Source: a virus
Taxonomy: Duplodnaviria > Heunggongvirae > Uroviricota > Caudoviricetes
Length of the DNA stretch: 64,000 nt
Virus record (IMG/VR): IMGVR_UViG_2706796290_000001
Span: 34,171-98,170 of that record
Strand: one strand, 5' to 3'
Shown: in pieces, positions 37,596-53,270 of the stretch
Layout of the letters: each line of letters begins with the position of its first letter
Position numbering within the stretch: position 1 is the first letter of the stretch
Program-made: the position numbers and the translations under genes
The notes under the pieces: generated by a model
Database searches by the model: none
What the model saw: the letters and a program-made list of their open reading frames with translations, nothing else
Told to the model about the DNA's origin: nothing

Positions 37596-37623
37596 GTCCT
37601 TAAAATAACTTGATTAAAGAATG

Positions 37624-37647: not shown

Positions 37648-37674
37648 TGTAGTTTAACTTGACAGGAGGTCATT

Positions 37675-38067: not shown

Positions 38068-38129
38068 TATTCCATTAAGAAATTTTATATGATATCATCC
38101 TCACTAGGTTATCTTGGTGAGGATTTTTT

Positions 38130-38432: not shown

Positions 38433-38947
38433 TGCACATTCAAAAAGGTAAACTTCGCTTTAACAAGCGAGAGTTGTGGAACTTAGATAAACACCTTGCT
38501 AAAGTTATTGTTCAGGGGTTGCAACAGTTCAAGAGTGTCCACAAGAACACCATCCCACCACACTTAGTCACTGAGGATATTAACCCTGAAACTGGTAGAG
38601 AGGTTTATTGGGATTATTCGAGTGAGTATTGTGATGAACAATGGCAAGAGTTATTAGATAAGATGATCTTTGCGTTTACAGAGCATCCAACATACTTTGA
38701 TATTGAACCTTATGATTTTTATTATGATGATTTAACACACCCTGAAAAGTTTCCTGAGCAAGTGTGGGAAGATCATCCTGTTTATGGTAAGGTAACAGAG
38801 TGGAGACGTGTGTTAAAAGAGGGTGTTACACAAGAAGACGTGGATGCTTGGTGGGAACGTAGTCGAGCTTACGATGCTGAGATTAAACGCAAAGTGGATG
38901 AAGGTCGAGAGTTATTCATTAAACATTTTGATAGCTTGTGGGACTGA
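38432..38947 (+). CDS. Hypothetical protein
   Basis: 171 aa. Translationally coupled (ATAATG). Confidence 0.4.
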   Translation: MHIQKGKLRFNKRELWNLDKHLAKVIVQGLQQFKSVHKNTIPPHLVTEDINPETGREVYWDYSSEYCDEQWQELLDKMIFAFTEHPTYFDIEPYDFYYDDLTHPEKFPEQVWEDHPVYGKVTEWRRVLKEGVTQEDVDAWWERSRAYDAEIKRKVDEGRELFIKHFDSLWD

Positions 38948-38977
38948 GATATGCAGCATTATCGAGGAGAGGTATAG

Positions 38978-39184
38978 ATGAGTAATATTAAAGTGGGTGA
39001 TAAGGTTGAAGTTATCCATGCAGGTCTATTTGGATGGAATGTCCACAAAGGACATGTTGGTACAGTGAAAAACATAGTAGGTGATTTTGAAATAGAGGTA
39101 TACTTTGATAGTATTGGGGATGGGCTAACCCAGTGGGTTCACTACCCAACTTGGGAACGTTGGGTAAAAGTTATTAAGGAGTAA
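38978..39184 (+). CDS. Small KOW/SH3-like paralog family member
   Basis: IKVGDKVEVI ... W-rich C-terminus. Confidence 0.5.
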   Translation: MSNIKVGDKVEVIHAGLFGWNVHKGHVGTVKNIVGDFEIEVYFDSIGDGLTQWVHYPTWERWVKVIKE

Positions 39185-39187
39185 CCA

Positions 39188-39451
39188 ATGAGCCTACCAA
39201 AAATTAAAGTTGGAGATACTGTAAGAGTGACTGATACAGAAGTATTTGCAGATTTTGTTCAGAAGGGTGATATTGCTACCATTGCAGATATTGAGTTTGG
39301 AGATGTTTATGTAGACATCTGGATGGAGAGTGATAAGTGGGGGTGGACACAGTTCGTGCGTATAAGTACTGATGATTTTAGAGGGTGGGGTAACCTATCA
39401 GTAACTTTTCTGCATGATTCTCAAAAACTTGTTGACAAACCTTCCGAATAA
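39188..39451 (+). CDS. Small KOW/SH3-like paralog family member
   Basis: IKVGDTVRVTD ... paralog of the preceding gene. Confidence 0.5.
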   Translation: MSLPKIKVGDTVRVTDTEVFADFVQKGDIATIADIEFGDVYVDIWMESDKWGWTQFVRISTDDFRGWGNLSVTFLHDSQKLVDKPSE

Positions 39452-39495
39452 ACTTAAGATTCAACCATAAGATAAACACTTAGTTTGGAGTTAAA

Positions 39496-40323
39496 ATGTT
39501 AAAAAAGATTGCTTTAGTTGGTGCGTTGGTTGCTTCGGCAATTTCATTCACAGGTTGTACACGAGTTACTGATGCAGAGGTTGGTGTGAAGACTAGCTTC
39601 ACTGGTAAGATTTCTGATGCACCACAGTATCAAGGTTTATACTTCCCTTGGGTATATAGCTTAGATAAATTCTCCACACGTAACCTGATTATTGATGTTT
39701 CTGGTCAGCCTATTGTTGAGAATGTGCAGATGGATGGTATGACCATTCGGGTAAATTACTCAATTAAACCTGAACTTGCACCTGAAATGTGGAAAACCCA
39801 GAAAGCACAACACATGGTTCGTGGAGGTGGTGAGGGTGATGAAAAACGTGAAATATTCCTCATGGGTTTATATGTTGAGACAATCTCTCGTAATGTCATG
39901 ATGGATGTGGTTAAGAACTACAAAGCCTTGGAGGTAAACTCTAAGCGTACAGAGATTGAGCCAATCTTAAAAGCTCAGATTGTGAAGACAATCAATGCCA
40001 ACGGTCGTGGTAAGTATGTTAATATTAATGAGGTGGTTATTATTAATTCACAACCACCGAAATCTGTTATGGATTCCGCTAAGCGTTACTTGACATCACT
40101 GAACGACTTACGTACAAAGCAGAATGAAGTAGAGATTGCTAAGCAAGAATCTGAGCGATTGAAAGCTTTGGCTTCACAGGCAAATGAAACTACTTTAGAC
40201 TACATGCGAGCACAAGCTCAGTTGAATAACTCGGAGGCAATGATGGAAATGGCTCGTAATAAGAGTGTAAATAAGTTGATCATTGCACCAATGAATATCA
40301 CATCTTTAGGTAAGTTAGACTAA
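39496..40323 (+). CDS. SPFH/band-7 domain lipoprotein
   Basis: Signal peptide plus lipobox FTGC. C-terminal Ala/Glu-rich coiled coil typical of SPFH (flotillin/HflK-like). Confidence 0.55.
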   Translation: MLKKIALVGALVASAISFTGCTRVTDAEVGVKTSFTGKISDAPQYQGLYFPWVYSLDKFSTRNLIIDVSGQPIVENVQMDGMTIRVNYSIKPELAPEMWKTQKAQHMVRGGGEGDEKREIFLMGLYVETISRNVMMDVVKNYKALEVNSKRTEIEPILKAQIVKTINANGRGKYVNINEVVIINSQPPKSVMDSAKRYLTSLNDLRTKQNEVEIAKQESERLKALASQANETTLDYMRAQAQLNNSEAMMEMARNKSVNKLIIAPMNITSLGKLD

Positions 40324-40369
40324 CAATTAATAGATTGGAGATATAAAAAACCAGTTAAGGATATCTTAT

Positions 40370-40537
40370 ATGTATGCTTTTATTTGTTGGTTGATCATCT
40401 TTTTATTTTACATTGCAGTATGGTATGTGGTAAAATTATATAAAGATGGAAAAGTTGGAGAGTTCTTTACAATGATGTGTATTACTATGTTACCAATAGT
40501 ACACACTTTGATATGTAAAGCTTTCTTTAATATTTAA
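40370..40537 (+). CDS. Small membrane protein (54 aa), not in ORF track
   Basis: ATG 40370. Translation MYAFICWLIIFLFYIAVWYVV... has two hydrophobic helices. Fills the gap downstream of the SPFH gene. Confidence 0.3.
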   Translation: MYAFICWLIIFLFYIAVWYVVKLYKDGKVGEFFTMMCITMLPIVHTLICKAFFNI

Positions 40538-40551
40538 TTAGGAGAAAATAT

Positions 40552-40902
40552 ATGTCAAAAAATTCACATGTAAATACATTGGAAGTTGTTAATGGTGGTC
40601 AACCTGTAGTTAGTATTCAAGATTTGAACACTGCACGTAAAAACAAGTTGTTCCATGATGGTTTACAACGTGTATATGAAAAGATGTACCGTAGTGGTTT
40701 TATGAAAGATACCACACCAAAACAACAAAAGATGATTGAGGAAGAACCAATCATGATGTTATCTCGTGAGTTATATCCATCCAGACAAGCGTACCGCCAT
40801 GCATTACGTAGCTGGGCTAAGCAGAAAGAGCGCTTTGCTAAAGCTGATTCTCGTGGATTGCTTCCAGAGCACTTAAAGGTTCACTTAACTGGACTTGCAT
40901 AA
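40552..40902 (+). CDS. Hypothetical protein
   Basis: 116 aa with RBS AGGAG. Confidence 0.4.
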   Translation: MSKNSHVNTLEVVNGGQPVVSIQDLNTARKNKLFHDGLQRVYEKMYRSGFMKDTTPKQQKMIEEEPIMMLSRELYPSRQAYRHALRSWAKQKERFAKADSRGLLPEHLKVHLTGLA

Positions 40903-40907
40903 AGTTT

Positions 40908-40930
40908 GCCCCTTTCAGGGGCTTTCTTAT
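40908..40930 (+). terminator. Rho-independent terminator
   Basis: GCCCCTTTCAGGGGC followed by TTTCTTATT. Confidence 0.55.
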
Positions 40931-40942
40931 TAGGAGATTCTT

Positions 40943-41149
40943 ATGGATAAATTCAAGGTTAGTGATCGTATTAAAGTTGTTGCTACATCAGACCAACAAC
41001 TAGAGATAGGGATAATTGGAGTTGACCTTAAAGGTAAGGTTGGAATAGTTATCGATCTGTATTGTGATGGTGGTGGGATGACAGCAGATTTTCATAAATA
41101 TGGTCGATGGTCTATGCCAAGTGATTACGTTGACAGGGTAGTAGGATGA
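40943..41149 (+). CDS. Small KOW-like paralog (LKGKVG subgroup)
   Basis: KVSDRIKVV ... LKGKVGIVIDL. Confidence 0.45.
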   Translation: MDKFKVSDRIKVVATSDQQLEIGIIGVDLKGKVGIVIDLYCDGGGMTADFHKYGRWSMPSDYVDRVVG

Positions 41150-41358
41150 GTACAAATACACAAAACATTAAAATGGGGGATAAAGTTAAGGTTATCTCAA
41201 CTGAACGTCAACTTTCTGAGATCGGTGCATCTGGAGATAACCTCAAAGGAAAGATTGGTGTGGTAACGAGCATCTTTCGTTATGGTTTTGCTGTTGATTT
41301 TGATAAAAATGGATGTTGGTGTTTGAGATTTGAGGATGTTCATAAAGTGGTTGAGTGA
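41146..41358 (+). CDS. Small KOW-like paralog (LKGKIG subgroup)
   Basis: KMGDKVKVIS ... LKGKIGVVTSI. Confidence 0.45.
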   Translation: MSTNTQNIKMGDKVKVISTERQLSEIGASGDNLKGKIGVVTSIFRYGFAVDFDKNGCWCLRFEDVHKVVE

Positions 41359-41444
41359 TTGTTGTGAAATTGTAAATTAATTTGACAATAATAACTTTTG
41401 ATGATATACATAAAGAACTATTAAACTTTTAAGAGGAATATTTT

Positions 41445-41876
41445 ATGGATCATCAAGAAAAATTTGATCAAAATCAACCAGAAACTTCAAAACACAAGGG
41501 AACACCTTGGTTAGATTGGCTTCGTGGTACTATTGGCACCCTGTTAATTGTTATTGCAGTAGGTGCTTTTGTTGCGAATAATCAACAACAACAATCGCAC
41601 TCTATTGTAACTGCTATTCAAGCTTTGAACAAGGATAAAATTCGAGAAACATACTCTTCAAGTAATTATAATATTGCCATGACATGTGGCATGGATGGTA
41701 ACTACCAGACTGCTTCTAATGTTTTAGAGCTAAGTGATGTCAAAGTTAAAACCCTTAGCAGTATTGTGCTGTACGACACTGGTATTGTAATGGCAAACTT
41801 TAGTGACAACACAAAGTTTATCACAGATATTAAAAACTGCACAATCAATGTTCAGAAGCTAACCAAGGAGTCGTAA
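41445..41876 (+). CDS. Membrane-anchored protein (1 TM)
   Basis: TM segment GTIGTLLIVIAVGAFVA. Confidence 0.4.
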   Translation: MDHQEKFDQNQPETSKHKGTPWLDWLRGTIGTLLIVIAVGAFVANNQQQQSHSIVTAIQALNKDKIRETYSSSNYNIAMTCGMDGNYQTASNVLELSDVKVKTLSSIVLYDTGIVMANFSDNTKFITDIKNCTINVQKLTKES

Positions 41877-42027
41877 TATGAGGGAAATTTCTAAAGAGTA
41901 TATCAAAAGAAAAGTTAAAGATTGGTATAACCTAGCAGCAACACATCCAAGGATTACCTATGCGATATTCTTGGTGGTTGTTTTTTCTTTAATACTTTTA
42001 AATACTGAATAGTAATAGGAGGTTTGG

Positions 42028-42594
42028 GTGTCTATTAAAGGGACTGGTGACTATATTCGTGTGACTGTTTCTCAAGAGGCAAAAGCTGCACTTGCTCGGA
42101 AGTTATTGCCTTTAGAGAATGTCAAAGATAAATATAGTGCATCAGCACAAACACAGCTAGGTTTTCCTTTTGGGGGTAACCTAGGGATTCCTTACACCTT
42201 AGAAACAATGAAGAGGCGCTATGTAGATTTCCTTGGTGAAAATGAGATTAAAATTCTTAGGTACATGATGCGGATATCTTTATCCTCAATTAAATATGGG
42301 ATGTATACCAAGCAAGATTACGCTATGGTGAACTTCACAAGCTCAATTGTATCACCTTATCTTTGGGATGTGTTTAAGGAGTGGCTAATCTCATGTGGAT
42401 TTACTGTACGAGAGGATATTCGAGAGACAGTACTAATCCAAGATTCTTACAATCAAGGGTCTGGAAGGTTTAAACTAATGTACGGTGCAAAAATCTTTTG
42501 GTCAAAAAAATCTGAAGAAAATGTTGACTTGTTAACTAAGATGGGTGTAGGATTGGGTATCAAAAATGGTTATGACCTAGAGGAAATCTTATGA
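42028..42594 (+). CDS. Hypothetical protein
   Basis: GTG start after GGAGG. 188 aa. Confidence 0.4.
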   Translation: MSIKGTGDYIRVTVSQEAKAALARKLLPLENVKDKYSASAQTQLGFPFGGNLGIPYTLETMKRRYVDFLGENEIKILRYMMRISLSSIKYGMYTKQDYAMVNFTSSIVSPYLWDVFKEWLISCGFTVREDIRETVLIQDSYNQGSGRFKLMYGAKIFWSKKSEENVDLLTKMGVGLGIKNGYDLEEIL

Positions 42595-42977
42595 CCGAAA
42601 TAGTTAAACAAGAAGAGAGCACTTCTGAAGACGAAATCATCAAAGTTAAAAAGAGTGTTGTTGTAGAGTACATCCTGAAAGATAGAAATAAATATCTAAG
42701 AGCACAACAATCACGCTATAAAAACATGAGATTGATTGATGGAATTCATATGAGATTTCTATTTATATATGGTGCTTTGTCGATTTTACTTGTGTTATCA
42801 TTACTGTGGACAATTGTTCGAATCATACTATTAAAAGAATTCTACGATGTTTTACTAGGAGCTTTTGATGTAATACTACTATTCATCTTTGTTATGCGTG
42901 TTGATGATGCACTACACTGGTGGGATGAAGAAGAGGAAAGAACAGGAGGTTATCTTGCCGACACAGAAACAGACTGA
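42591..42977 (+). CDS. Membrane protein (2 TM)
   Basis: Two hydrophobic helices. Confidence 0.4.
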   Translation: MTEIVKQEESTSEDEIIKVKKSVVVEYILKDRNKYLRAQQSRYKNMRLIDGIHMRFLFIYGALSILLVLSLLWTIVRIILLKEFYDVLLGAFDVILLFIFVMRVDDALHWWDEEEERTGGYLADTETD

Positions 42978-42993
42978 TTCACTATACGTTGAA

Positions 42994-43425
42994 ATGCTAG
43001 AACCCCTGAAGAAACGCTCTCATGGGGTTAGAGCTAAAGTTGGAGCAATCTTGGTGACCCAACAAGGTAACCTTCTGGTTGGAATTAATGGGCTACCTAA
43101 ACAGCTTGGAAACAAGTTGGAGATTGAAGAGGTAGTTTTAGAGAGTGTATTTGGACAGCCACCTAGATGGGTTCTCACAGGTGAGTTAATAACTAAACCT
43201 ACAGTTATTCATGCAGAGATGAATTGTATTTTAAAGGCTGCTAGAGAAGGAGTTAGCACAGTTAATTCTACTGTCTATGTAACGCTATCACCATGTGCTC
43301 ATTGTGCCTCTATGCTTGTTTCTGCTGGTGTAAAGCGGTTGGTTTATGTTGAGGATTATCGTGATCCTTCAGGGCTGGATGTTTTGAGGCGTTGTGATAT
43401 AGAAGTTGTTAAATATAAGGAGTAA
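42994..43425 (+). CDS. dCMP (deoxycytidylate) deaminase
   Basis: Zinc motifs HAEMNCI and SPCAHCA. N-terminal KVGAILV as in T4 Cd. Start is uncertain (ATG 42994 versus upstream TTG 42889, which overlaps the previous gene). Confidence 0.65.
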   Translation: MLEPLKKRSHGVRAKVGAILVTQQGNLLVGINGLPKQLGNKLEIEEVVLESVFGQPPRWVLTGELITKPTVIHAEMNCILKAAREGVSTVNSTVYVTLSPCAHCASMLVSAGVKRLVYVEDYRDPSGLDVLRRCDIEVVKYKE

Positions 43426-43430
43426 TTTCT

Positions 43431-43754
43431 TTGGATATGTTGGAAGTTTATTTAAAAAAGAGAATGTTGGGTTGTGCTTTTAAAGGTATTATCCATCAAG
43501 GTCCTGACAAGGATAAGTTTAAAGATTCTGAATTTCTACTTACAAGAATTTCAAATCGCTATGTTTGGGGGCACCCTGTAGGATATCCAAAGAAGAGATT
43601 CTGCTTTAAATTGTCCGAAGTTAGATTTTACTTTGATGATCAACAGTCTGAACCACATCAATCATTCATGTGTAAGCTGATGGATGCCTTATGTGATGTT
43701 GAAGATGACATCCAAAGTGGTTATATTAAGTATTTAATAACAGACCAAAATTGA
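43431..43754 (+). CDS. Hypothetical protein
   Basis: 107 aa. Confidence 0.4.
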   Translation: MDMLEVYLKKRMLGCAFKGIIHQGPDKDKFKDSEFLLTRISNRYVWGHPVGYPKKRFCFKLSEVRFYFDDQQSEPHQSFMCKLMDALCDVEDDIQSGYIKYLITDQN

Positions 43755-43774
43755 GCTTGAAAATTTAAATCAAA

Positions 43775-43807
43775 CCCCTAGTGCTTGACATTAGGGGTAT
43801 TTTTTTG
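43775..43807 (+). terminator. Rho-independent terminator
   Basis: CCCCTA...TAGGGG hairpin followed by TATTTTTTTG. Confidence 0.55.
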
Positions 43808-43848
43808 TTAAAATTAAATTTAATAGATAACCAAAAGGTTAATTTTTT

Positions 43849-44289
43849 ATGACAACTTTTGTATATGTTGAAATGTCTGAGGGGTCAAAATCCCCAGTGG
43901 GTAAGCTTCATGAGGTAGATACCTCAATGATCTGTATTCATAAAGATACTCTTTTTAAAGGTTTTCCAGAAGTCAACTTCGACATGTTGATGGAAACATT
44001 GAAAGAACACCTCAATGAATTCGAAGAGTCAACTTTCTTAAAAAACTGGCAAGGTGTTGGTTATATGAAAAATATACCACAACATCAATTTGCACTAAGA
44101 ATGATTGAGAAGTATAAACTGTTCTCAGCCCTTGATGAAATGGAACTTGAAGATATTGAATATGATGAATACACTGATAGTGTTGTTCAAAGTATACTCG
44201 CACTGTTAGATGATTTATTCAATTATGGGGATACCATCGAGGTGATTAAGATTATTTATGCTGGTGAAGTTAATAACTTGTTTGGATGA
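43849..44289 (+). CDS. Hypothetical acidic protein
   Basis: 146 aa. Confidence 0.4.
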   Translation: MTTFVYVEMSEGSKSPVGKLHEVDTSMICIHKDTLFKGFPEVNFDMLMETLKEHLNEFEESTFLKNWQGVGYMKNIPQHQFALRMIEKYKLFSALDEMELEDIEYDEYTDSVVQSILALLDDLFNYGDTIEVIKIIYAGEVNNLFG

Positions 44290-44399
44290 GGGTTTTTAAA
44301 TGAAAGAGAAATGGACTGTTGTTGCTGCTATAGCTTGTAGCATATTAATCCTGTACTTCTGTGCACTATCTCAAAATAAAGCTAAATAGGCTCAGTGTG

Positions 44400-44573
44400 A
44401 TGGAGAAACGCGATTTTATGCAAGTGGTGGGAGAATTTATGCTTGTGACAACTACAAAAAGCATGAAGCTCAACAACAGGAAACACAGGAATGGACAAAC
44501 AACTAGTTTTGAACTATTTAAGGACCTACAGTTTTTCTTACATACGACCTATGTACAGATCCCTACAGGTTAG
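44400..44573 (+). CDS. Hypothetical small protein (overlaps the next ORF by about 80 nt out of frame)
   Basis: ATG 44400 within tracked ORF 44361..44573. Confidence 0.25.
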   Translation: MEKRDFMQVVGEFMLVTTTKSMKLNNRKHRNGQTTSFELFKDLQFFLHTTYVQIPTG

Positions 44574-44694
44574 ATCTAAAGGTATGTCTTTAAACAAATT
44601 TAGGAAGTTTTTAAAAGGTATGGAAAAGGAAGGATTAATTGAAGAGGTTAAGATACTTCCTTACCATGACTTTCCTTGCTGGAGATTGAAATGA
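44491..44694 (+). CDS. Hypothetical small basic protein
   Basis: 67 aa, K/R-rich. Confidence 0.3.
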   Translation: MDKQLVLNYLRTYSFSYIRPMYRSLQVRSKGMSLNKFRKFLKGMEKEGLIEEVKILPYHDFPCWRLK

Positions 44695-44915
44695 CATTTT
44701 TTAATGAAGAGCGTATTGGTGGAAAAGATGAGGTAGAGTTGGGAACTAGGGTAATATCAAGTCTCAATGTGCACAGTTTCAATAAAATCACCTACGAGTT
44801 TTCCTTCTTGATTTTTGGTGAGGATTTTGATAAAACTATCTACACACGCTTTGATATGGATTTCAATATTGAAGACCATGAAGAATTTATCTGGAGAGAT
44901 GAAGATGGGGATTAA
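44676..44915 (+). CDS. Hypothetical protein
   Basis: 79 aa. Confidence 0.35.
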   Translation: MLEIEMTFFNEERIGGKDEVELGTRVISSLNVHSFNKITYEFSFLIFGEDFDKTIYTRFDMDFNIEDHEEFIWRDEDGD

Positions 44916-45078
44916 AAAATCTAGAGAAAAATTTGAAGAAGCCTTCAAAGAAGTGTGGTCCAGAAGGAATGTGGAATTCCAACGATTAGTTTGGTTGGAG
45001 GAAGAACAGCGATATGACCGTGATCACCCACAAATCATGTGGGAGTTGTGGCAGATACAAGAATCCCTAGGAGATTAA
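44899..45078 (+). CDS. Hypothetical protein
   Basis: ATG 44899 in frame with tracked ORF 44815..45078. Confidence 0.35.
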   Translation: MKMGIKKSREKFEEAFKEVWSRRNVEFQRLVWLEEEQRYDRDHPQIMWELWQIQESLGD

Positions 45079-45079
45079 T

Positions 45080-45286
45080 ATGAGTGAATTCAATAAGGGT
45101 GACCGTGTAGTTATTGAATTCTCACCTGTATGGAATGTACTATTTAATCCAAAGAAAGTTTTTAGTGGGAATATTGGTAAGATAAAAGATAAATTTGAAT
45201 ATGCAGGTTGTTTATTTTACAGGGTTTATAATCCAGAATGGGAGTTTGATGTTAATGTCAAAGCTTCTTTGTTAACTAAATTTTAA
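45080..45286 (+). CDS. Small KOW-like paralog family member (YNPEW)
   Basis: NKGDRVVIE ... GNIGKIKD ... YNPEW. Confidence 0.5.
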   Translation: MSEFNKGDRVVIEFSPVWNVLFNPKKVFSGNIGKIKDKFEYAGCLFYRVYNPEWEFDVNVKASLLTKF

Positions 45287-45295
45287 AGGTATACC

Positions 45296-45682
45296 ATGAA
45301 ACAAATTATTTTCCTAGATGATGAAAGAGTAATCCAAGATGTAACTTGGTTAGATTATTCTAAAATGGATAACTCTAAGTGGTCTGGTGCTTATGTCATC
45401 TCCCAAAGTTCAGCTTCTCGTTTAATCTCATACATTAAACATTATGGGAAATACTTTGACTGGGAAAATACTTTGTTTTCCTTAGACCATGACCTTCAGG
45501 ATTTTGATGGGGAGGAAGAGTCTACAGGTTATACTTTCATTAAATGGTTGGTTGACTTTATGGTTAAGAACGAAATTTCCCTCCAACATCTCCATGTAGT
45601 TGTGCACTCACAAAATCCTGTTGGTAAAGAAAACATTGAAAAATATATCAGTAATGCTAAACTACACTATTTAGAATTCTAG
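45296..45682 (+). CDS. Hypothetical protein
   Basis: 128 aa. Confidence 0.4.
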   Translation: MKQIIFLDDERVIQDVTWLDYSKMDNSKWSGAYVISQSSASRLISYIKHYGKYFDWENTLFSLDHDLQDFDGEEESTGYTFIKWLVDFMVKNEISLQHLHVVVHSQNPVGKENIEKYISNAKLHYLEF

Positions 45683-45688
45683 GAGATT

Positions 45689-45907
45689 TTGATGGGATAT
45701 TACAAAGTAGGTGATGTAGTTGAAATTACCAAACTAATAGCTTTAGATGAAGAACTTGGTATAAAAGTTGGGGATATTGCGAAGGTCCAACGAGTAAAAG
45801 ATTATGATGATGGTGATCAATACATTATCTGTTATAATCCAAAATGGAATAGATTAATTGATGGATTAAGGCGAATGGTCCCCCGACAGTTAAAGAAGGT
45901 GAAGTAA
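45689..45907 (+). CDS. Small KOW-like paralog family member
   Basis: KVGDVVEITKL...GIKVGDIAKV...CYNPKW. Confidence 0.55.
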   Translation: MMGYYKVGDVVEITKLIALDEELGIKVGDIAKVQRVKDYDDGDQYIICYNPKWNRLIDGLRRMVPRQLKKVK

Positions 45908-46119
45908 TGGCAGAAGCAATACTAGATGTAAAAAACCTCAAGGCACCAATTGTAGTAGTCCGTTTTACGGTGTTTGGTGATAGGGCAATGTATAAGTTGT
46001 ACTTGAAAAAAGATTTTGGGTATTACTGTGAAGATCAACCTAGTGCTTGGTTTGATAGTAGTCTTGTAGATCACTTAAATGATTGGCAATATCATTCACA
46101 CCAAGAAATTTATTTGTAG
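45907..46119 (+). CDS. Hypothetical protein
   Basis: 70 aa. Confidence 0.35.
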   Translation: MAEAILDVKNLKAPIVVVRFTVFGDRAMYKLYLKKDFGYYCEDQPSAWFDSSLVDHLNDWQYHSHQEIYL

Positions 46120-46127
46120 GAGTTATT

Positions 46128-46349
46128 ATGGCTAAATACAAAGAAGGTGATAAAGTTGTTGTCACAAAGCTTGTTTCTACTGACTATGAAAGAGGTATAC
46201 GTGTTGGACACATAGCTAAGGTTGTCACAGTTCGAGATCTAGATGGAGCTGCCTATTGTCACAACCCCGAATGGGATTATAGAGGGTTACAACGTCAAAA
46301 TAGAACAATGCTATCCTACCAAATTGAAAAATGTGAGGTGCACAAGTGA
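46128..46349 (+). CDS. Small KOW-like paralog family member
   Basis: KEGDKVVVTKL...GIRVGHIAKV...CHNPEW. ATG 46128 after AGGAG. Confidence 0.55.
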   Translation: MAKYKEGDKVVVTKLVSTDYERGIRVGHIAKVVTVRDLDGAAYCHNPEWDYRGLQRQNRTMLSYQIEKCEVHK

Positions 46350-46573
46350 ATGTGGATTTTAATCAAGATACAGGTAAAGGTTTAACGATTGGGGAAATTC
46401 GTTCTCGTGCACAAAAATATGCTACACATTATGAAATTCAAGGAAATGAGGTGGTATACTACGCTAAGGATCAAATAGGTCGTTGGTGCTATGTTGATGA
46501 TGAAAGTGGTGGAGGTTGGCCTACACATTCTTGTGAATGGGATCGTCTGGATAATGAACTGAAGCCACTTTAA
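46346..46573 (+). CDS. Hypothetical protein
   Basis: 75 aa. Confidence 0.35.
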   Translation: MNVDFNQDTGKGLTIGEIRSRAQKYATHYEIQGNEVVYYAKDQIGRWCYVDDESGGGWPTHSCEWDRLDNELKPL

Positions 46574-46601
46574 TGTGGTTTTACTTTTTGGAGATTGTGT
46601 G

Positions 46602-46790
46602 ATGTTTAAAGTAGGTGATAAAGTAGAGGTGATAGAGGTTTTAGCTGCCGATGAGGAAGCTAATATCAAGGTTGGTGATGTAGCAAAAGTCACTGTGGTG
46701 AGAGGTCCTTTTTGGATTCAATGTGAAAATCCTGAATGGGTAGACGGTTTCATGCCTATGAGAGAATACCAAATCAAGAAGGTAGGATAG
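46602..46790 (+). CDS. Small KOW-like paralog family member
   Basis: FKVGDKVEVIEVL...IKVGDVAKV...CENPEW. Confidence 0.55.
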   Translation: MFKVGDKVEVIEVLAADEEANIKVGDVAKVTVVRGPFWIQCENPEWVDGFMPMREYQIKKVG

Positions 46791-46793
46791 TTA

Positions 46794-46987
46794 TGCGATA
46801 TAATATTGGTGATAAAGTAGTTATCACAAGAGTTTCAGTAACAGATACTAGATTTGGGGTGAAGGTTGGAGATGTAGCCAAGGTAGTTGAACAAGATCAC
46901 TGGGATCGAAATTGGTACTATTGTAGAAACCCTGATTGGAAACAAGATATAGTCAATATGAAAAATGACCAACTTAAAAAACTCTGA
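46794..46987 (+). CDS. Small KOW-like paralog family member
   Basis: NIGDKVVITRV...GVKVGDVAKV...CRNPDW. Confidence 0.55.
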
Positions 46988-47005
46988 AAATAATTTTAAA
47001 AAGTT

Positions 47006-47034
47006 GTTGACAGGAAAATTAAAACCCACTAACA
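47006..47034 (+). promoter_or_regulatory. Sigma70-like promoter upstream of the MoxR-like cassette
   Basis: AAAAAGTTGTTGACA-N17-TAACAT. Confidence 0.4.
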
Positions 47035-47123
47035 TAAGCCTCATAGAGAACAAGCAAACAAAGTTCTTAATGAAATACTTGAATAAACAGCACATTGGTG
47101 CACAAACTATCTAGGAGATATTA

Positions 47124-48317
47124 ATGGATTTACTTATTGGTCATTCTTACCAGTTAATCAACACTAAAGATCCAGCTTTCATGTTCACAACTGGTTTTAG
47201 TGACCCTAAGACAAATAAAGTCATTAAAGATGCTATTATTAAACCTTACAGCAAAGATGATGATGGTGATGTTTTTGCTTATGCATACTTCCCAGATCGT
47301 CAAGACACTATTATCAATCCAGATCACAATGTGTTGATCATTCGAAGTGAATTTGATTTGTTTAAAGAGGTTGGTGCTGGTGATCAATCTCAACCAGAAG
47401 TGGATGGAATTGAAGAAAGTGAAGTATTCTCTCACAATCTTAAGAAGATGTTCCAAGAGATGGTTGATAAAAACCTAGGCTCTGAAGAGATGCAATCGAA
47501 GATCACTGAAACTATCCGTGAAACTGTGCTTGAGCAAGCTCCACGACCACTTGAAGTGAAGTTTGGTGAGAAGACAACTGTAATTGGTACTGCTCACGTA
47601 ATGCTTGCAGAAGCTTTAAAACGCTTAAATGCAACAAAGAACATCATGTTAGTTGGTCCTGCTGGTTCTGGTAAGACTTACCTTGCAGCACAACTTGCAG
47701 AGTCTTTACAGCTTGACTTCTCATCAATTTCTTGTAGCTCTGGTATGTCTGAATCAGTGATTACTGGTTGGTTGTTACCTGTTGATGGTGGTGCATTTGA
47801 ATACCATGAAAGTGACTTCATTCGAATTTACGAAAATGGTGGTGTGTTCTTGTTTGATGAAATGGATGCTGCTGACCCATCTATCTTATTGATCATCAAC
47901 CAAGCATTAGCAAACGGTAAAATTACTGTTCCACAACGTAAAGGTAATACAGAAGTTAAACGACATAAAGACTTCATTTGTGTTGGCGCATGTAACACAT
48001 TTGGTCGTGGTTCTAACTTAATGTACTCTGGTCGTGAACGATTGGATGAATCAACACTTGACCGTTTCCGTTTAGGTTTGATGGAAATGGATTACGACAA
48101 GCTCCTTGAAGAAAAAGTTGTTGATAAAGCTGTTCGTGAATGGGCTTGGCAAGTACGTGCTCGAATTCAGGAAAGTGGTTTACGCCGAGTGATGTCAACA
48201 CGTTTCATGATCGATGCAACTAAGTTGTTACAAAATACTGATGCAACAATGCAGAAAGTAAAAGATATCTTCTTTGTTGGTTGGTCTGATGACGAGAGAC
48301 GTAAAACTGATTTATAA
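47124..48317 (+). CDS. MoxR-like (AAA_5-type) AAA+ ATPase with about 150-aa N-terminal extension
   Basis: Walker A VGPAGSGKT, Walker B FLFDEMDAA, sensor region ACNTFGRGSN, arginine-finger-like ESTLDRF. Confidence 0.55.
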   Translation: MDLLIGHSYQLINTKDPAFMFTTGFSDPKTNKVIKDAIIKPYSKDDDGDVFAYAYFPDRQDTIINPDHNVLIIRSEFDLFKEVGAGDQSQPEVDGIEESEVFSHNLKKMFQEMVDKNLGSEEMQSKITETIRETVLEQAPRPLEVKFGEKTTVIGTAHVMLAEALKRLNATKNIMLVGPAGSGKTYLAAQLAESLQLDFSSISCSSGMSESVITGWLLPVDGGAFEYHESDFIRIYENGGVFLFDEMDAADPSILLIINQALANGKITVPQRKGNTEVKRHKDFICVGACNTFGRGSNLMYSGRERLDESTLDRFRLGLMEMDYDKLLEEKVVDKAVREWAWQVRARIQESGLRRVMSTRFMIDATKLLQNTDATMQKVKDIFFVGWSDDERRKTDL

Positions 48318-48335
48318 CAAAAACTTCCCAAGAAA

Positions 48336-48368
48336 CCCCTAAAGGAATTCCTTTAGGGGTTTTATTTT
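48336..48368 (+). terminator. Rho-independent terminator (palindrome family)
   Basis: CCCCTAAAGGAATTCCTTTAGGGG followed by TTTTATTTT. Confidence 0.65.
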
Positions 48369-48381
48369 GAATAAATTTTAC

Positions 48382-48410
48382 TTGATTTAAAAATAGAATT
48401 TGTTTAGAAT
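48382..48410 (+). promoter_or_regulatory. Sigma70-like promoter
   Basis: TTGATT-N17-TAGAAT. Confidence 0.4.
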
Positions 48411-48446
48411 CTACTTAGTTATTAAGCTCAATAAGAGGATATCTCA

Positions 48447-49340
48447 ATGTATAAATCTGTTGAAAATGTTAAAGGTTTGCACGGTAAAGTGGCGATCGTT
48501 AAATATAGAAATGTTTCTGATGCTATGGACCACTATAAAAAATATGATGTGGACATCCCTTTCAAGCACAATAAAGGTAAGGTTTCAGAGTATCGTGGTG
48601 GTCATCATAGTACTGATTGGACAGGTTTTAGTGATCAACGTCACTTTGAACAAACTATGCTTCATGGTGATAAAATCAAAGCGATTGAGATTGAAGAAAT
48701 TCAAGCACCAGAAGTTAAGGTTGAGTCACGTAAACGTAAACGCCATAAAGGGCCTATCGGTGATACTTTAGATATTCATGCAGTATATCGTGGTGAATTG
48801 GATCGTGCATGGACCTATACCAAACGTGATATGCATGATGGTGGTATGAAAAACATCACCCTCCTAATTAACATTGGTGATAACTGTGGCGTTTCCTCAC
48901 AGGCATTAGGGTGGCGTGGTGCAGTGGCATTGAAAGTTTGTGATGTGATGACTGAAGCTGGTTATAATGTTCGAATCATTGCTAACCAAATGACTGAAGA
49001 TTTAACCCGTGATGACGATGGTTATGGCTACAATTGCACAACTGTTAAGGACTTTGATGAATACTTGGATGTGCCTAAGCTTGCTGCAATCTTCTGCCGT
49101 GCAGGTTTCTTCCGTTCAGTAATCTTCACCACAATTGTTTATGAAGCTGAATTACTGGGGAAACGTGTAGGTTACGGTTTAGGTCGATCTATCAAGTCAC
49201 ACAGTGAGGAAGGTAAGAAGCTAATCGAACATGTGCACCAAGATGAAGGATATATGGTGGTATTCCCTTCGGTGAATGGTAAAGAGGATGCTTTAAATGC
49301 CATGAAGGAGATCTTAAAGCCTTATTTAATTGAGGAATAA
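48447..49340 (+). CDS. Hypothetical protein, candidate partner of the MoxR-like ATPase
   Basis: 297-aa ORF with RBS AAGAGGA, immediately downstream of the ATPase. No recognisable motif. Confidence 0.4.
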   Translation: MYKSVENVKGLHGKVAIVKYRNVSDAMDHYKKYDVDIPFKHNKGKVSEYRGGHHSTDWTGFSDQRHFEQTMLHGDKIKAIEIEEIQAPEVKVESRKRKRHKGPIGDTLDIHAVYRGELDRAWTYTKRDMHDGGMKNITLLINIGDNCGVSSQALGWRGAVALKVCDVMTEAGYNVRIIANQMTEDLTRDDDGYGYNCTTVKDFDEYLDVPKLAAIFCRAGFFRSVIFTTIVYEAELLGKRVGYGLGRSIKSHSEEGKKLIEHVHQDEGYMVVFPSVNGKEDALNAMKEILKPYLIEE

Positions 49341-49342
49341 TC

Positions 49343-49621
49343 ATGGATCGTCAAGAGATGATTAAGAAGTATCCTATCGGCTCTAAGCTGGTAGGGAGAT
49401 ATCTAGGGCACAAAAAGTCTTCAATTGAAATGATTTGTAAGGTTGTTGGTTATTCTGCTTTCAGAACTTCGATTTTAGTCTATAATCCAGAAATAATTGG
49501 TCATAATGGTACTGGAAGATGTGTAGATCAAACAGCATCTAGAATTTCTGGGGAAAAGATAAAAGATCTTTATGGTAACCATTGTTGGTATGTTAAATAT
49601 GAAGATTTGCGAGGTAATTAA
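49343..49621 (+). CDS. Small paralog (YPIGSK...YNPxI subgroup)
   Basis: YPIGSKLVGRY...LVYNPEIIGHNGTG...CWYV. Confidence 0.5.
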   Translation: MDRQEMIKKYPIGSKLVGRYLGHKKSSIEMICKVVGYSAFRTSILVYNPEIIGHNGTGRCVDQTASRISGEKIKDLYGNHCWYVKYEDLRGN

Positions 49622-49914
49622 TGATTTTAGAAGGGCTAGAAGACATTGCTAGAGAATATCCAATAGGTTCGAAGGTTATATGTAATGGGAATAATCTTAG
49701 TTATGGGGGGAATGGAGAAGAATTAGTTTGTAAAGTTCTTGGCTATAGCCGATGGGGATATGGTTTGTTACTATACAACCCTGACATTCTAGGACATTCA
49801 GGGAATGGTTTATGTTTAAATGGTTTGCATGAAGAAGTTGATCAAGGCTACCTTGAGAGAAACTACCGAGAGAGTTGCTGGTATATTAGCTACAACATGG
49901 TTAAGAAGGTGTAG
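49621..49914 (+). CDS. Small paralog (same subgroup)
   Basis: YPIGSKVICNG...LLYNPDILGHSGNG...CWYI. Confidence 0.5.
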   Translation: MILEGLEDIAREYPIGSKVICNGNNLSYGGNGEELVCKVLGYSRWGYGLLLYNPDILGHSGNGLCLNGLHEEVDQGYLERNYRESCWYISYNMVKKV

Positions 49915-49944
49915 TATACCTATAGATAAAATGTGGAGGTATAA

Positions 49945-50217
49945 ATGGTTGCTGTTCCAAAAGATAAATTCCCTATTGGATGTAAAGTAAGGGTGATTAG
50001 TGGAGATGGTAGGTGGAAAACTGGAGATATTGGCAAGGTGATAGGCTATGGTGGTACAGATGATATTGTTATATACAACCCACGTATAGAAGGACATAGT
50101 GCATCAACTCACTGTTTTGATAAGAATGGTTGTAGGATCAAGGATGAAGTAAGGTTAAAATATGCAGGTCATTTATGGTACATCTCTATAAGAAGTACAG
50201 AAAGAATTGGAGGTTAA
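49945..50217 (+). CDS. Small paralog (same subgroup)
   Basis: FPIGCKVRVISG...VIYNPRIEGHSAS...LWYI. Confidence 0.5.
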   Translation: MVAVPKDKFPIGCKVRVISGDGRWKTGDIGKVIGYGGTDDIVIYNPRIEGHSASTHCFDKNGCRIKDEVRLKYAGHLWYISIRSTERIGG

Positions 50218-50220
50218 GTC

Positions 50221-50682
50221 GTGAGTAAGCAAGTAGAAAACCCTAAGTACAAATCCTTAAAACAACCTACAGGTAATGGTTCATGTCGCCCTAAAGGTTA
50301 TGGCTGGGTGCAAGTTGATAAGTTAGTGGGTTCTGACAATCAGTATGGTATTGTAGAAAATGGTATCTATAAGGTTGTGGTGTATAATCCTTTAGGTGTA
50401 ATTATTATTACTCCAGATGCCCCGTATGGTGACAACACAAGAGAGCTAATTAAGGATCAATATCATTGGGTTTCATTTGATGATGTCTTTAATCCAATAC
50501 CTGAAGATGAAGAACTGAAGGTTGGTGATAGGGTAATGCTTAATCAAGATTACAACACCTATAAAAAAGGTTATGTTATGAAAGTAAAAGAAATCAGAAA
50601 AGATGGTGACGATTTGCTTGTACAACTTTGTAATCCGAGTACATCCTTCTGGGCTTATTCTCATAGAATACGTAAATTCTAA
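50221..50682 (+). CDS. Two-domain paralog family member
   Basis: GTG start. VVYNPLG... plus second unit KVGDRVML...CNPSTSFW. Confidence 0.45.
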   Translation: MSKQVENPKYKSLKQPTGNGSCRPKGYGWVQVDKLVGSDNQYGIVENGIYKVVVYNPLGVIIITPDAPYGDNTRELIKDQYHWVSFDDVFNPIPEDEELKVGDRVMLNQDYNTYKKGYVMKVKEIRKDGDDLLVQLCNPSTSFWAYSHRIRKF

Positions 50683-50766
50683 TTAAGTTTCCATTGAAAA
50701 CTTGCACAAACCCTCAAGAAATGATAGTATGCACCTATTAATCAACCAAGCATTATAGGTGCTAAA

Positions 50767-51231
50767 ATGGCTAAACGTTTTAAGTATACTAAACTTCAAC
50801 AATCTCAAAAAACTTCAAAATTATCATCTATTTGCAATAAAGTGACTACTTCTGTAGCTCGCTTTTTTCGTGTTGCCTTTAAAAACTTCTTAAGTATGTT
50901 TAAAGGTGGTTCTCCACAGGATATCATGCGAGATAGATTTAAAGAGTGGCACGAAGATGTAAACCTTGCAAATAAGAAGGTGACTTATCAAGTTGGTCAG
51001 AGAGTAACCATTAATGATGTTTCTTATTTTGAGAAATACAGAGGTTTTCATGCTGGTGATGTTGCAAAAATTACCAAATTGATTAATGAGGATGGTGTTG
51101 AGAAGTTAGCACTCTTCAATCCTAAATGGATCACTGCGAAAGATGAACTTGGTTTGGGTTGTGTAATTGTTGATCCTAAGAAATGCATGGTGGAGATTGT
51201 TGGTGTAAAATCTGGGGGTGTAAATGTATAA
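50767..51231 (+). CDS. Paralog family member with N-terminal basic extension
   Basis: VGQRVTIND...GDVAKITKL...FNPKW. Confidence 0.45.
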   Translation: MAKRFKYTKLQQSQKTSKLSSICNKVTTSVARFFRVAFKNFLSMFKGGSPQDIMRDRFKEWHEDVNLANKKVTYQVGQRVTINDVSYFEKYRGFHAGDVAKITKLINEDGVEKLALFNPKWITAKDELGLGCVIVDPKKCMVEIVGVKSGGVNV

Positions 51232-51472
51232 TGAAGGTCTACCTGTAGATGGTGCTAAAATAGTGGTTAACAACCCTGATGGCATATCCAGAAGCACCTA
51301 CAACGTAAGAGAAAACGATGTGGCGAAAGTAGTGGGGAGAATTCATGGTTCTGGTTACAGTATACTAGCATACAATCCTGATTGGAAAAATAAAGAGAGG
51401 GATCACGATGCATTTACATACAAGGGACCTTGTGTGATATTGTGTCGCAGTGAGTATGAGGTGATTGAATAA
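51224..51472 (+). CDS. Small KOW-like paralog family member
   Basis: AKIVVNNPD...NDVAKVVGR...YNPDW...SEYEVIE. Confidence 0.5.
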   Translation: MYNEGLPVDGAKIVVNNPDGISRSTYNVRENDVAKVVGRIHGSGYSILAYNPDWKNKERDHDAFTYKGPCVILCRSEYEVIE

Positions 51473-51789
51473 TGGAAATGTGGGATGGTTATGGTGTGTC
51501 AAGCTATGCAAAAGGTGAATATGATGCATCAGAGGTTGTTGTAGGTTCAAAGATAGTTATAACAAAACCTGACAGTGTTTCTATTGCAAGGAATGCTCTT
51601 AATGGTGATATTGGAAAGATCGTACATGTATGTAAAGTTGACAACAAGCCATGTACATATCTGGCATATAATCCAAAGTGGAAATGTTGTGACGATGGTA
51701 TGCAGAGGGGTTTTGGATATGGGGGTTTGTTTATAATACTTTGGAGAAGTGAGTTTGAGGTGATTCGATATGAAAACAAAAGTTGGTGA
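51472..51789 (+). CDS. Small KOW-like paralog family member
   Basis: GSKIVITKPD...GDIGKIVHV...YNPKW...SEFEVIRYE. Confidence 0.5.
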   Translation: MEMWDGYGVSSYAKGEYDASEVVVGSKIVITKPDSVSIARNALNGDIGKIVHVCKVDNKPCTYLAYNPKWKCCDDGMQRGFGYGGLFIILWRSEFEVIRYENKSW

Positions 51790-51985
51790 TAAAATCAAAA
51801 TAACCTCTCTTGATAAGTAAAGTGATGCCACAGGAGTAGAAATAGGACATGTTGGTAAAGTTGTTGAGGTTTACCCTGCTGGGTGCTTTGCTGAGAATCC
51901 ATTGTGGGGTAAAGGTTCAACAGGATTCTTTAACAGTGAATTTGAGGTCTTAAATAAATCTGAGGGTTTGAACGATGACTGAATG
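51770..51985 (+). pseudogene. Paralog family member with in-frame TAA (codon 17) - pseudogene or readthrough candidate
   Basis: MKTKVGDKIKITSLDK*SDATGVEIGHVGKVVEV...ENPLW...SEFEVLNK aligns throughout with its paralogs. The stop at 51818-51820 falls at a variable position within the domain. Confidence 0.5.
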
Positions 51986-52244
51986 TTATTATTGGGATGT
52001 CCCATCACAAACTAAAGAGCCTACAATAAAAGTTGGCGATAAGGTTGAGATAATTGATCCTCATCAGCTTGACAAATTCCTTGGAATTCAGGTTGGGGAT
52101 GTGGCTAAAGTGGTTTATGTAGGAAATGATCATTTAAGATGTAATAATCCAAGATGGAATATCCGTGATCATGAAATCGGCAGAGTGATGGGTCTAAATC
52201 AAATTAAGCTGATTGTGAATACTTATAAGGAAGAATCTCTATGA
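51975..52244 (+). CDS. Small KOW-like paralog family member
   Basis: IKVGDKVEIIDP...GIQVGDVAKVVYV...CNNPRW. Confidence 0.55.
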   Translation: MTECYYWDVPSQTKEPTIKVGDKVEIIDPHQLDKFLGIQVGDVAKVVYVGNDHLRCNNPRWNIRDHEIGRVMGLNQIKLIVNTYKEESL

Positions 52245-52498
52245 AAGAACCAGAAATTGGCACCAAAGTTGTAATTGTTAATCCTGATGACCGTTCTCGT
52301 GCAGAAGGTATTGTTGAAGGTGATGTAGGTAAAATACTCAAATGTGAATCTAGCTTCAAAGCAAATGAGTTGCTATTACTTGTGCACAACCCTAAGTGGG
52401 AAAACATGCACGAAGGTGTTCTTGATTGTAAATCACCTTGTCATCTTGTATACTTATCTGAATGTGATATTTACGAAGAATGCCTTAAGGGGAATTAG
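52241..52498 (+). CDS. Small KOW-like paralog family member
   Basis: EIGTKVVIVNPD...GDVGKILK...HNPKW. Confidence 0.5.
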   Translation: MKEPEIGTKVVIVNPDDRSRAEGIVEGDVGKILKCESSFKANELLLLVHNPKWENMHEGVLDCKSPCHLVYLSECDIYEECLKGN

Positions 52499-52500
52499 TT

Positions 52501-52851
52501 ATGAGTGCTAAGATACCAGAAATACCACCTATACCAAAACCAGAGCCAGAAAAACCTTATGAAATTTCTCAGACTGTACATAGTCGATTTAATCACCAGA
52601 AGTGTCAGTACGAAGTATTTTCTGTAGGTGAGAGGGTGAGAATATCCCTTTATGGATCTCAATTCCTGAATAATTATGGTATTTACGATGGTCACGTAGG
52701 GAAAATTGTAGAGATAAAAAAGGTTGATATGGGGAATGGAAGTGTTGTTGCTAAGATTTACATAAAAAACCCACTATGGCACTATAAATTACCCGACAAA
52801 GACCCTACAATAATGGAGTTTTTGGATTATGAAGTTTCCAAATTGGAGTAG
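52501..52851 (+). CDS. Paralog family member with N-terminal Pro-rich extension
   Basis: VGERVRISL...GHVGKIVEI...KNPLW. Confidence 0.45.
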   Translation: MSAKIPEIPPIPKPEPEKPYEISQTVHSRFNHQKCQYEVFSVGERVRISLYGSQFLNNYGIYDGHVGKIVEIKKVDMGNGSVVAKIYIKNPLWHYKLPDKDPTIMEFLDYEVSKLE

Positions 52852-52949
52852 GGGATAAAGTAGGGAGTAGGGGTAGAGTAGTAATTAAAGTGTTAACTAG
52901 GGCAGTAAATAGAGTAGTTAATAGAAATTGTAAGTTTTAGGAGGATTTT

Positions 52950-53270
52950 ATGCCCAATGTGGATTTTGAAAGTTTATTCAGCCTCGGTTCTGAAGATAAA
53001 CCAGTAGGTTATCTCCCAAAGGATGTTAAAATTATTATAACAGCACCACAACAAGAAAAGGTTATCTTTAAAGGTTGGGACATGAGTAGGCGAGATGGTG
53101 TCCGTAGAGAGATACCTGTAGGTACTGTGTTTAAAGTCATAGATGTGACCAAGAATGGTAGATTCATTAAAGGAACTAATCCCGATTACACCTTAAGTGA
53201 TATTGTTTTTTATAACACTGAGGTGGAATATGCTATGGTTCCTGTAGAGTTGGTTGGAATGGAGGTTTAA
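52950..53270 (+). CDS. Small protein, distant member of the KOW-like family
   Basis: PVGTVFKVIDV ... pattern. RBS AGGAGG. Confidence 0.4.
   Translation: MPNVDFESLFSLGSEDKPVGYLPKDVKIIITAPQQEKVIFKGWDMSRRDGVRREIPVGTVFKVIDVTKNGRFIKGTNPDYTLSDIVFYNTEVEYAMVPVELVGMEV

Follow-up and report, generated by a model that had tools for sequence, protein, structure and literature searches.

The window analyzed here is a stretch of 64,000 nucleotides (nt) of viral DNA (positions 34,171 to 98,170 of IMG/VR record IMGVR_UViG_2706796290_000001; the record position minus 34,170 gives the window position used below), and it carries on the + strand, mainly at 38978–53270, a family of small paralogous genes that is the subject of this report. 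The segment 38978–53270 was 100% identical to Acinetobacter phage YMC13/03/R2096 (R2096; KM672662 / NC_027332, 98,170 bp) and to phage P577, and 91–94% identical across 79–93% of its length to phages Bestia, Ab15, AM24, Herod, and Mithridates. The genome is that of a 98-kb Acinetobacter myovirus, in which the family lies in the non-structural + strand region that contains genes for replication and nucleotide metabolism, and all genes of the array are labeled "hypothetical protein" in the RefSeq record. In a comparative paper, AM24 and R2096 form their own cluster, in which about 70% of genes are without function, and the paralog family goes unmentioned (PMC5795418). Literature searches on MIB_HERC2 in phages, on SH3-like paralog families, and on these phages did not yield a description of it either.

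Membership was determined by a profile that was seeded with six of the example members named in a preliminary description of the window and iterated over all 313 window open reading frames (ORFs) of at least 40 amino acids (aa) on both strands, with a threshold of E < 1e-3. The profile converged on 18 ORFs, whereas none of 6,260 shuffled ORFs matched it even at E < 10 with default filters, and the best E-value among the shuffled ORFs with the filters off was 0.024. Two genes of a subgroup with a YPIGSK motif (49343 and 49621) were not reached by this core profile, but a search seeded on these two alone recovered the whole family by way of 49945, and a profile–profile comparison of the subgroup with the core by hhalign gave a probability of 84% and an E-value of 7e-6. 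The gene at 52950–53270 was gained after the ORFs of five related phages were added to the profile (E 9.4e-7). As a result, the intact members totaled 21, namely 20 within 38978–53270 and one upstream (37023). The finding of 21 ORFs at E < 1e-3, compared with 0 of 6,260 after shuffling, shows that the members are of common descent. Thus, the proposal of a family of more than 20 genes held, far beyond chance, and the eight example genes and the YPIGSK (49343–50217) and LKGK (40943–41358) subgroups were all recognized as members by profile. The members are listed in Table 1.

The preliminary description had taken the members to be all adjacent and the array to occupy about 14 kb. They were found instead in four blocks (37023–39451, 40943–41358, 45080–46987, and 49343–53270) with 23 unrelated annotated genes between members, including those for an SPFH protein, a dCMP deaminase, a cREC_REC protein, an AAA_5 ATPase, and a DUF7192 protein, and only 49343–53270, with 11 genes and a pseudogene, is a contiguous run. 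The family coding DNA amounts to 6.0 kb (6.1% of the genome), and the 21 genes represent about 13% of the 162 annotated protein genes. The shared scaffold that had been written for the family (of the type GDKV, VGD, and NPxW at variable spacing) matched a single gene, 46793, as a literal pattern, whereas a loosened pattern matched 8 of the 21 members, none of 292 other ORFs, and none of 4,200 shuffles. The written scaffold is therefore a consensus and not a string common to all members. Shine-Dalgarno–like sites were present upstream of 18 of the 21 genes, and several family genes overlap by 1–4 nt. Promoter-like sites were not enriched (62 vs 72±10 in shuffles), and the presence of a few strong terminators is the sole inference drawn with respect to transcription units.

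Table 1. Members of the main family and of the minus-strand family in the window. Profile (HMM, hidden Markov model) E-values refer to the main family unless indicated otherwise.
Feature	Window positions	Strand	Evidence
Member outside the interval first described, 190 aa	37023..37595	+	HMM E 4e-9 to 2e-8, profile positions 3-36 only
Member, 68 aa	38978..39184	+	HMM E 4e-17; phrog_5785 E 1.5e-15; weak Pfam SH3_15 15.6 bits
Member, 87 aa	39188..39451	+	HMM E 6e-20
Member, LKGK subgroup, 68 aa	40943..41149	+	HMM E 5e-10
Member, LKGK subgroup, 70 aa, 4 nt overlap with 40943 gene	41146..41358	+	HMM E 2e-10; phrog_20971
Member, 68 aa	45080..45286	+	HMM E 8e-19
Member, 71 aa, modeled by AlphaFold2	45692..45907	+	
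Member, 73 aa	46128..46349	+	HMM E 4e-23
Member, 62 aa, universal type	46602..46790	+	HMM E 9e-24; orthogroup 9 in 8/8 loci
Member, 64 aa, sole match to literal scaffold	46793..46987	+	HMM E 1.5e-23; regular expression
Member, YPIGSK subgroup, 92 aa	49343..49621	+	Pair-seeded search, hhalign to core; phrog_16588
Member, YPIGSK subgroup, 97 aa	49621..49914	+	Pair-seeded search, hhalign to core
Member, 90 aa, bridges YPIGSK subgroup and core	49945..50217	+	HMM E 2.5e-10 vs core, 1.8e-25 vs YPIGSK profile
Member, 153 aa, family domain residues 98-151	50221..50682	+	HMM domain E 1.2e-12
Member, 154 aa, family domain residues 73-129	50767..51231	+	HMM E 5e-18; isoelectric point 9.7
Member, 82 aa	51224..51472	+	HMM E 1e-13
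Member, 105 aa	51472..51789	+	HMM E 1.3e-19
Pseudogene copy, in-frame TAA 51818-51820 after codon 16	51770..51982	+	HMM E 1.3e-5 on stop-to-stop segment
Member, 89 aa	51975..52244	+	HMM E 6e-20
Member, 85 aa, universal type	52241..52498	+	HMM E 1.4e-19; orthogroup 19 in 8/8 loci
Member, 116 aa, domain residues 39-111	52501..52851	+	HMM E 3e-18
Divergent member, 106 aa	52950..53270	+	E 0.08 window-only profile; E 9.4e-7 multi-phage profile
Five minus-strand paralogs	60285-60524, 60511-60762, 60755-60997, 60991-61560, 61582-62139	-	Own profile E 1e-30 to 1e-39

An AlphaFold2 model of the 45692 product, for which 17 window paralogs served as the alignment, had a mean predicted local distance difference test score (pLDDT) of 92 and presented a barrel of five strands, in which the beta1-beta2 loop contains a short helix, in agreement with the definition of SH3-like small beta-barrels as five-stranded, highly bent, antiparallel, and of about 60 residues. 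The predicted fold shown by this model is thus a small SH3-like beta-barrel of about 60 residues. With respect to the designation KOW/SH3-like in the preliminary description, the SH3-like part stands and the KOW part does not, as the best match to Pfam KOW (PF00467) was 14.9 bits (E 0.024; 41146) compared with the cut-off of 22.3 bits, and the remaining nine members examined gave no match; the likeness to KOW is one of fold, without membership in that family. Unlike the KOW domains of NusG, Spt5, and ribosomal L24, the phage family lies below the threshold, is without NGN or ribosomal context, and is heterogeneous in charge. More generally, nothing above Pfam cut-offs was found among twelve main-family members, the five minus-strand paralogs of Table 1, and two ORFs at 26596 and 26819. 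The best single protein reached 15.6 bits for SH3_15 (PF18346; 38978) compared with a cut-off of 24 bits, and MIB_HERC2 (PF06701, cut-off 33.5 bits) had no match among the twelve main-family members scanned.

Some members exceed the size of a single barrel. The N-terminal half-domain of the 37023 product, a type found in three of the eight loci compared below, matches the family, and its C-terminal part is very acidic (isoelectric point [pI] 4.25, net charge −23). The genes 50221 and 50767 had been proposed to be two-unit fusions, and hidden second units were sought by hhalign in both of their N-termini and in the 37023 C-terminus, with probabilities of 0.2–8%. In 50767, a second unit was rejected, as its basic N-terminal 72 residues are unrelated to the family (hhalign probability 0.2%). 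The gene 50221 has one sequence-detectable unit, its N-terminal half being undetected by hhalign, but a model of moderate quality (AlphaFold2, pLDDT 74) has five strands in each half, so that its N-terminal half is possibly a second barrel. A Zn site in the YPIGSK subgroup was also considered and rejected, since the orthologs are without an invariant Cys pair and share only PIGxK, GY, NP, GH, Y, and W. The two small beta-rich ORFs at 26596–27058, which had been suggested to be distant members, were not accepted, with an E-value of 0.018 for 26596 against the family profile and no Pfam support for the membership of either. A weak match of 26819 to Phage_ProQ_C_like (Tudor-like; E 5.5e-4) was observed, and the two may be further SH3- or Tudor-type small proteins.

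A word-indexed protein search with the family alignment returned 33 matches, all in this phage lineage, and an exhaustive profile search was therefore needed to reveal wider relatives. Among 1.84 billion cluster representatives, 601 matched at E ≤ 1e-3. About 35 of the best 150 matches were single-domain proteins of 60–120 aa with the same NPxW...QIKKV pattern, and most of the remaining matches were long proteins with 2–15 repeats. Repeat proteins of Cafeteria and Artemidia were among the matches, and Pfam reads them as SH3_15 (E 7e-97); a Cafeteria protein with nine SH3_15 repeats matched the family profile with an E-value of 1.6e-28, which is summed over the repeats, and single-repeat E-values against the SH3_15 protein and HERC2 were 0.17–0.67. 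A profile search of PDB sequences gave a HERC2 chain (9l8y) with an E-value of 2.9e-5, its score also being summed over repeats. Sequence comparison suggests that the closest relatives belong to the Mind bomb REP / MIB-HERC2 protein-interaction class, with the relationship placed at the superfamily level. The units of the Mind bomb SH3 repeat and MIB_HERC2 lie inside an E3 ligase, whereas those of the phage family are separate genes, which differ from SH3_15 and MIB_HERC2 also in having an NPxW motif and variable C-terminal tails of their own.

Among 50,697 cultured-phage records searched by tblastn, the single-gene form was found only in this Acinetobacter lineage, and repeat-protein forms were found by tblastn and Foldseek in Xanthomonas phages phiL7, DMF5-T1, and FoX2 and in Burkholderia phage vB_SBP9. 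The metagenomic protein P0034 has four near-perfect repeats (FKVGDKVRVV...GYSVGDVS...NP...QLELV) in 313 aa (E 6e-29). These intragenic repeat versions (P0034, P0037, phiL7 p36, DMF5-T1, FoX2, and vB_SBP9) share the FKVGDKV...GYSVGDV...NP pattern of the family, but they fuse two to four units in a polypeptide, whereas the phage array consists of about 21 separate genes with individual tails. Matches among the viral structures of BFVD were uncharacterized proteins only. In PHROGs, the members tested fell into phrog_5785, 16588, 28097, and 20971, all of unknown function, with E-values of 1e-15 to 1e-108; phrog_5785 was matched by 7 of 10 members (E 1.5e-15 to 9e-25), and the other three corresponded to phrog_16588, 28097, and 20971. 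These groups contain members of the family but split it, and its common ancestry and expansion are unrecorded there.

The same data bear on two alternative roles. The barrels could bind nucleic acid, like KOW, Tudor, Sso7d, and OapB, and modulate transcription, translation, or RNA stability of the phage or host, possibly as decoys of NusG or of ribosomal KOW partners. This appears unlikely, as no member reached the KOW cut-off and the significant sequence-level relatives are protein-binding SH3 repeats; furthermore, the pI ranges from 4.05 to 9.8 (median 6.4) and is below 7 in about 58% of 179 members, which is a misfit with a common nucleic-acid ligand. The barrels could also be minor virion or assembly proteins, such as decoration proteins or scaffolding accessories. 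SH3-like domains do occur in some phage structural and lysis modules (for example, PMC13164509). However, no member lies in the structural module (record positions 11–56 kb), and a profile search of the rest of the genome (record positions 1–34,170) found no copy, so that such a role is extremely unlikely.

The evolution of the family was compared over eight loci, consisting of the window, the five cultured relatives (Bestia, Ab15, AM24, Herod, and Mithridates), and two partial metagenomic contigs of the lineage. The 179 members in these loci form 54 groups at ≥65% identity; thus, the type pool of the lineage is at least 54, and about eight groups are present everywhere. The number of copies per genome, counted in the six complete phages, was 19 in Herod, 21 in R2096, 21 in Ab15, 22 in Bestia, 24 in AM24, and 28 in Mithridates. 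No genome contained two members of one group, that is, two copies at least 65% identical, and the paralogs of R2096 were 16–52% identical to each other. DNA repeats between copies were only 16–35 nt and mostly comprised the KVGDKV and YNPKW codons, the longest repeat family being 35 nt with 77% identity. The near-identical copies or long direct repeats of a recent amplification ("accordion") were absent. The low paralog identity, the short repeats, and the absence of same-group copies in any genome indicate that the duplications are old.

The present differences between the phages arise instead by loss, slot replacement, and decay, and also by recombination between paralogs. The slot of 45692 is occupied in four relatives by genes whose proteins are just 54–57% identical to its product, representing replacement at a fixed slot. 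Decay was found in the nonsense allele in the window, which had been recognized in the preliminary description (51770; Table 1) and differs from the intact Bestia gene by one C>A change in a Tyr codon (TAC>TAA). In Bestia, Ab15, and Herod, the gene of this type encodes an uninterrupted product of 70 aa, and the stop is presumably also present in P577, because P577 is 100% identical to the window across the region. Bestia has a split copy of the 49621 type (locus L002, 14886–15180), and Mithridates has a truncated copy of the 49343 type (locus L004, 15957–16175). The metagenomic P0055 is a chimera of a 50221-type N-terminus and a 51472-type barrel. Over the same 16.5 kb, megablast aligned 62–73% of family DNA in AM24, Mithridates, Ab15, and Herod compared with 83–95% of non-family DNA, with Bestia as an exception (93% vs 96%), and the 15 interleaved control genes occurred in 7–8 of the eight loci, with two exceptions. 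Regarding the rapid birth-and-death evolution that had been proposed, turnover was borne out by the 54 types, of which about eight are universal, and decay by the nonsense allele and the split and truncated copies, but rapid birth was not supported.

Genes for HNH homing endonucleases were also observed in the variable region of Mithridates (L004, 8215–8844), Ab15 (L005, 4996–5625), and Herod (L006, 4996–5625), but not in that of R2096. The insertions in Ab15 and Herod are accompanied by the loss of one family copy, that of the 40943 type.

Selection was evaluated by the Nei-Gojobori ratio of nonsynonymous to synonymous substitution rates (dN/dS), pooled over all ortholog pairs. The value was 0.36 for the family (0.10–0.92 per group) compared with 0.13 for the 15 interleaved genes. 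When sites were split by the family profile, dN/dS was 0.11 for the scaffold, 0.43 for the loops, and 0.40 for the tails, with a dS of about 0.21 in all classes, although the scaffold class is defined by paralog conservation, which makes its low value partly expected and the contrast somewhat biased. Column entropy with one representative per group indicated that G7, G27, and W52 are near-invariant and that V10, V29, K31, V32, N49, and P50 are conserved, whereas positions 13–22, 33–48, and all past W52 are highly variable. These hypervariable segments correspond to the beta1-beta2 loop, the beta2-beta3 hairpin, and the C-terminal tail. Thus, each type is held by purifying selection, and the loops and tails evolve about 3–4 times faster than the scaffold and the neighbor genes. 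The low dN/dS of the scaffold indicates that the fold is maintained by selection while the surface parts change fast.

These results bear on the possibility that the copies are dispensable passengers of a plastic region, with hardly any function or none, which persist there either as duplicates of old origin or as small mobile cassettes. It would agree with their patchy presence among relatives, the fresh pseudogene and truncated copies, the insertion of the homing endonuclease genes in Herod, Ab15, and Mithridates, and a dN/dS above that of neighbor genes. On the other hand, the dN/dS of 0.36 overall and 0.11 in the scaffold means that selection keeps the fold, only one of the 22 copies is disrupted, ribosome-binding sites precede 18 of the 21 intact ones, and about eight types are retained in every genome, and we consider such a passenger status distinctly unlikely.

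The observations to be explained are a minimal barrel with variable loops and tails, an apparent kinship with peptide-binding SH3 repeats, mixed charge, relaxed purifying selection, and a patchy distribution in the non-structural region. The reading that best fits them is that the family represents a repertoire of diversified modules that bind different proteins in host takeover or counter-defense, and we would place its probability a little short of even. The Shine-Dalgarno–like sites and the position of a cREC_REC gene within the array are taken as additional support. Each copy would bind a ligand different from those of the others, most probably a protein of the host or of a rival element, and would act as an inhibitor or adaptor in takeover or counter-defense, and the set carried may be tuned by loss, replacement, and recombination to the Acinetobacter baumannii strains met. 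A more specific form is doubtful, namely that the array is a cassette-like counter-defense repertoire, in which each barrel uses its hypervariable loops and tail to neutralize or redirect a different target in host immunity or takeover and in which cassettes are exchanged or discarded to track A. baumannii defenses. If true, this would be a phage-side counterpart of a diversified receptor repertoire on one minimal fold.

Several points weigh against the repertoire reading. RNA and DNA are also bound by SH3-like barrels. The pooled dN/dS was below 1 in every site class, so that positive selection was not shown, and the faster loops, with the bias of the site classes mentioned above, could reflect weak constraint alone. 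In addition, no member tested matched a defense or anti-defense annotation in PHROGs, where all are of unknown function, and a search of the defense models of PADLOC-DB with ten members gave nothing at E ≤ 0.01. The comparison is based on six cultured phages and two partial metagenomic contigs.

A functional precedent, for which no homology is claimed, is Nip of Bacillus phage Phi3T, a counter-defense protein against the TIR NADase SpbK. It has two predicted SH3-like domains and forms a tripartite complex with the SpbK defense protein and YonE (PMC11984713). It is a single 279-aa protein with an HU-like dimerization domain, unlike the multi-gene phage family.

A conserved pair of genes lies between two of the family blocks at 47124–49340. 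One encodes an AAA_5 ATPase of the MoxR type, which the record labels "porphyrin biosynthesis," and the other encodes a DUF7192 protein. The barrels might be substrate adaptors or clients of this ATPase and its partner, with each delivering a different target. Adjacency is the sole basis for such a role, and other members lie 6–10 kb away beside unrelated genes, which makes it very unlikely.

As for the neighboring genes, in Bestia, Mithridates, and the contig L008, an extra minus-strand gene (~290–304 aa; Pfam DUF723 in L008) splits the ATPase/DUF7192 pair. A cREC_REC (cyclic-phosphate processing receiver) protein is encoded at 45296–45682 within the third family block (Pfam E 1.4e-16) and is found in all eight loci. 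The PhoH-like gene at 34091–35860 encodes 589 aa, of which Pfam PhoH covers residues 400–582 only (profile positions 22–203). Its product reads ...ATGFAG|CVDADTEF...VFVTGN|TSKTYI..., which looks like an intein-like insertion of about 330 aa at the Walker A loop, and no intein profile matched it. The segment 53300–60000, which divides the + strand block from the minus-strand block, has a lower G+C content (0.31–0.36) and a weaker GC skew than the gene blocks on either side, and its ORFs are short and sparse. Beyond it, a second array on the minus strand (60285–62139) contains five MIB_HERC2-like SH3-type paralogs of 78–188 aa with the motif IGTKVTL..NP.GI.G.V..W.V.WSNG..N.Y..LKVLG, two of which bear C-terminal extensions of about 110 aa. 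This array is distantly related to the main family (hhalign probability 78%, E 1.7e-5). Its gene 60285 alone matches Pfam MIB_HERC2, with 26.7 bits, below the 33.5-bit cut-off, and single-copy relatives of this second family occur in Pseudomonas, Yersinia, Klebsiella, and Aeromonas phages.

The description given here of the structure and evolution of the family is secure. The fold is ordinary, and variable small-gene regions of large phages are well known. Comparable variation between close relatives is seen in the hyperplastic regions of large lytic phages of the T4 type, which contain small early or middle ORFs of unknown function. The ORFs of those regions are unrelated ORFans, whereas most of the variable slots in the present phages are taken by a single family of homologous fold. 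What looks new is that a single SH3-like family represents 13% of the genes of a lytic phage, draws on a pool of at least 54 types, and is built of a unit that occurs elsewhere as intragenic repeats. The family accounts for much of the difference in gene content between phages that are otherwise 91–94% identical and that are therapy candidates against carbapenem-resistant A. baumannii (PMC6444642). If the copies are dispensable, they would provide a measure of how much of a lytic phage genome one drifting family can fill. If they are target-specific binders, they would help to explain differences in host range, and the family would offer both a naturally occurring collection of minimal scaffolds for binding and a tractable model of how a phage diversifies a protein repertoire.

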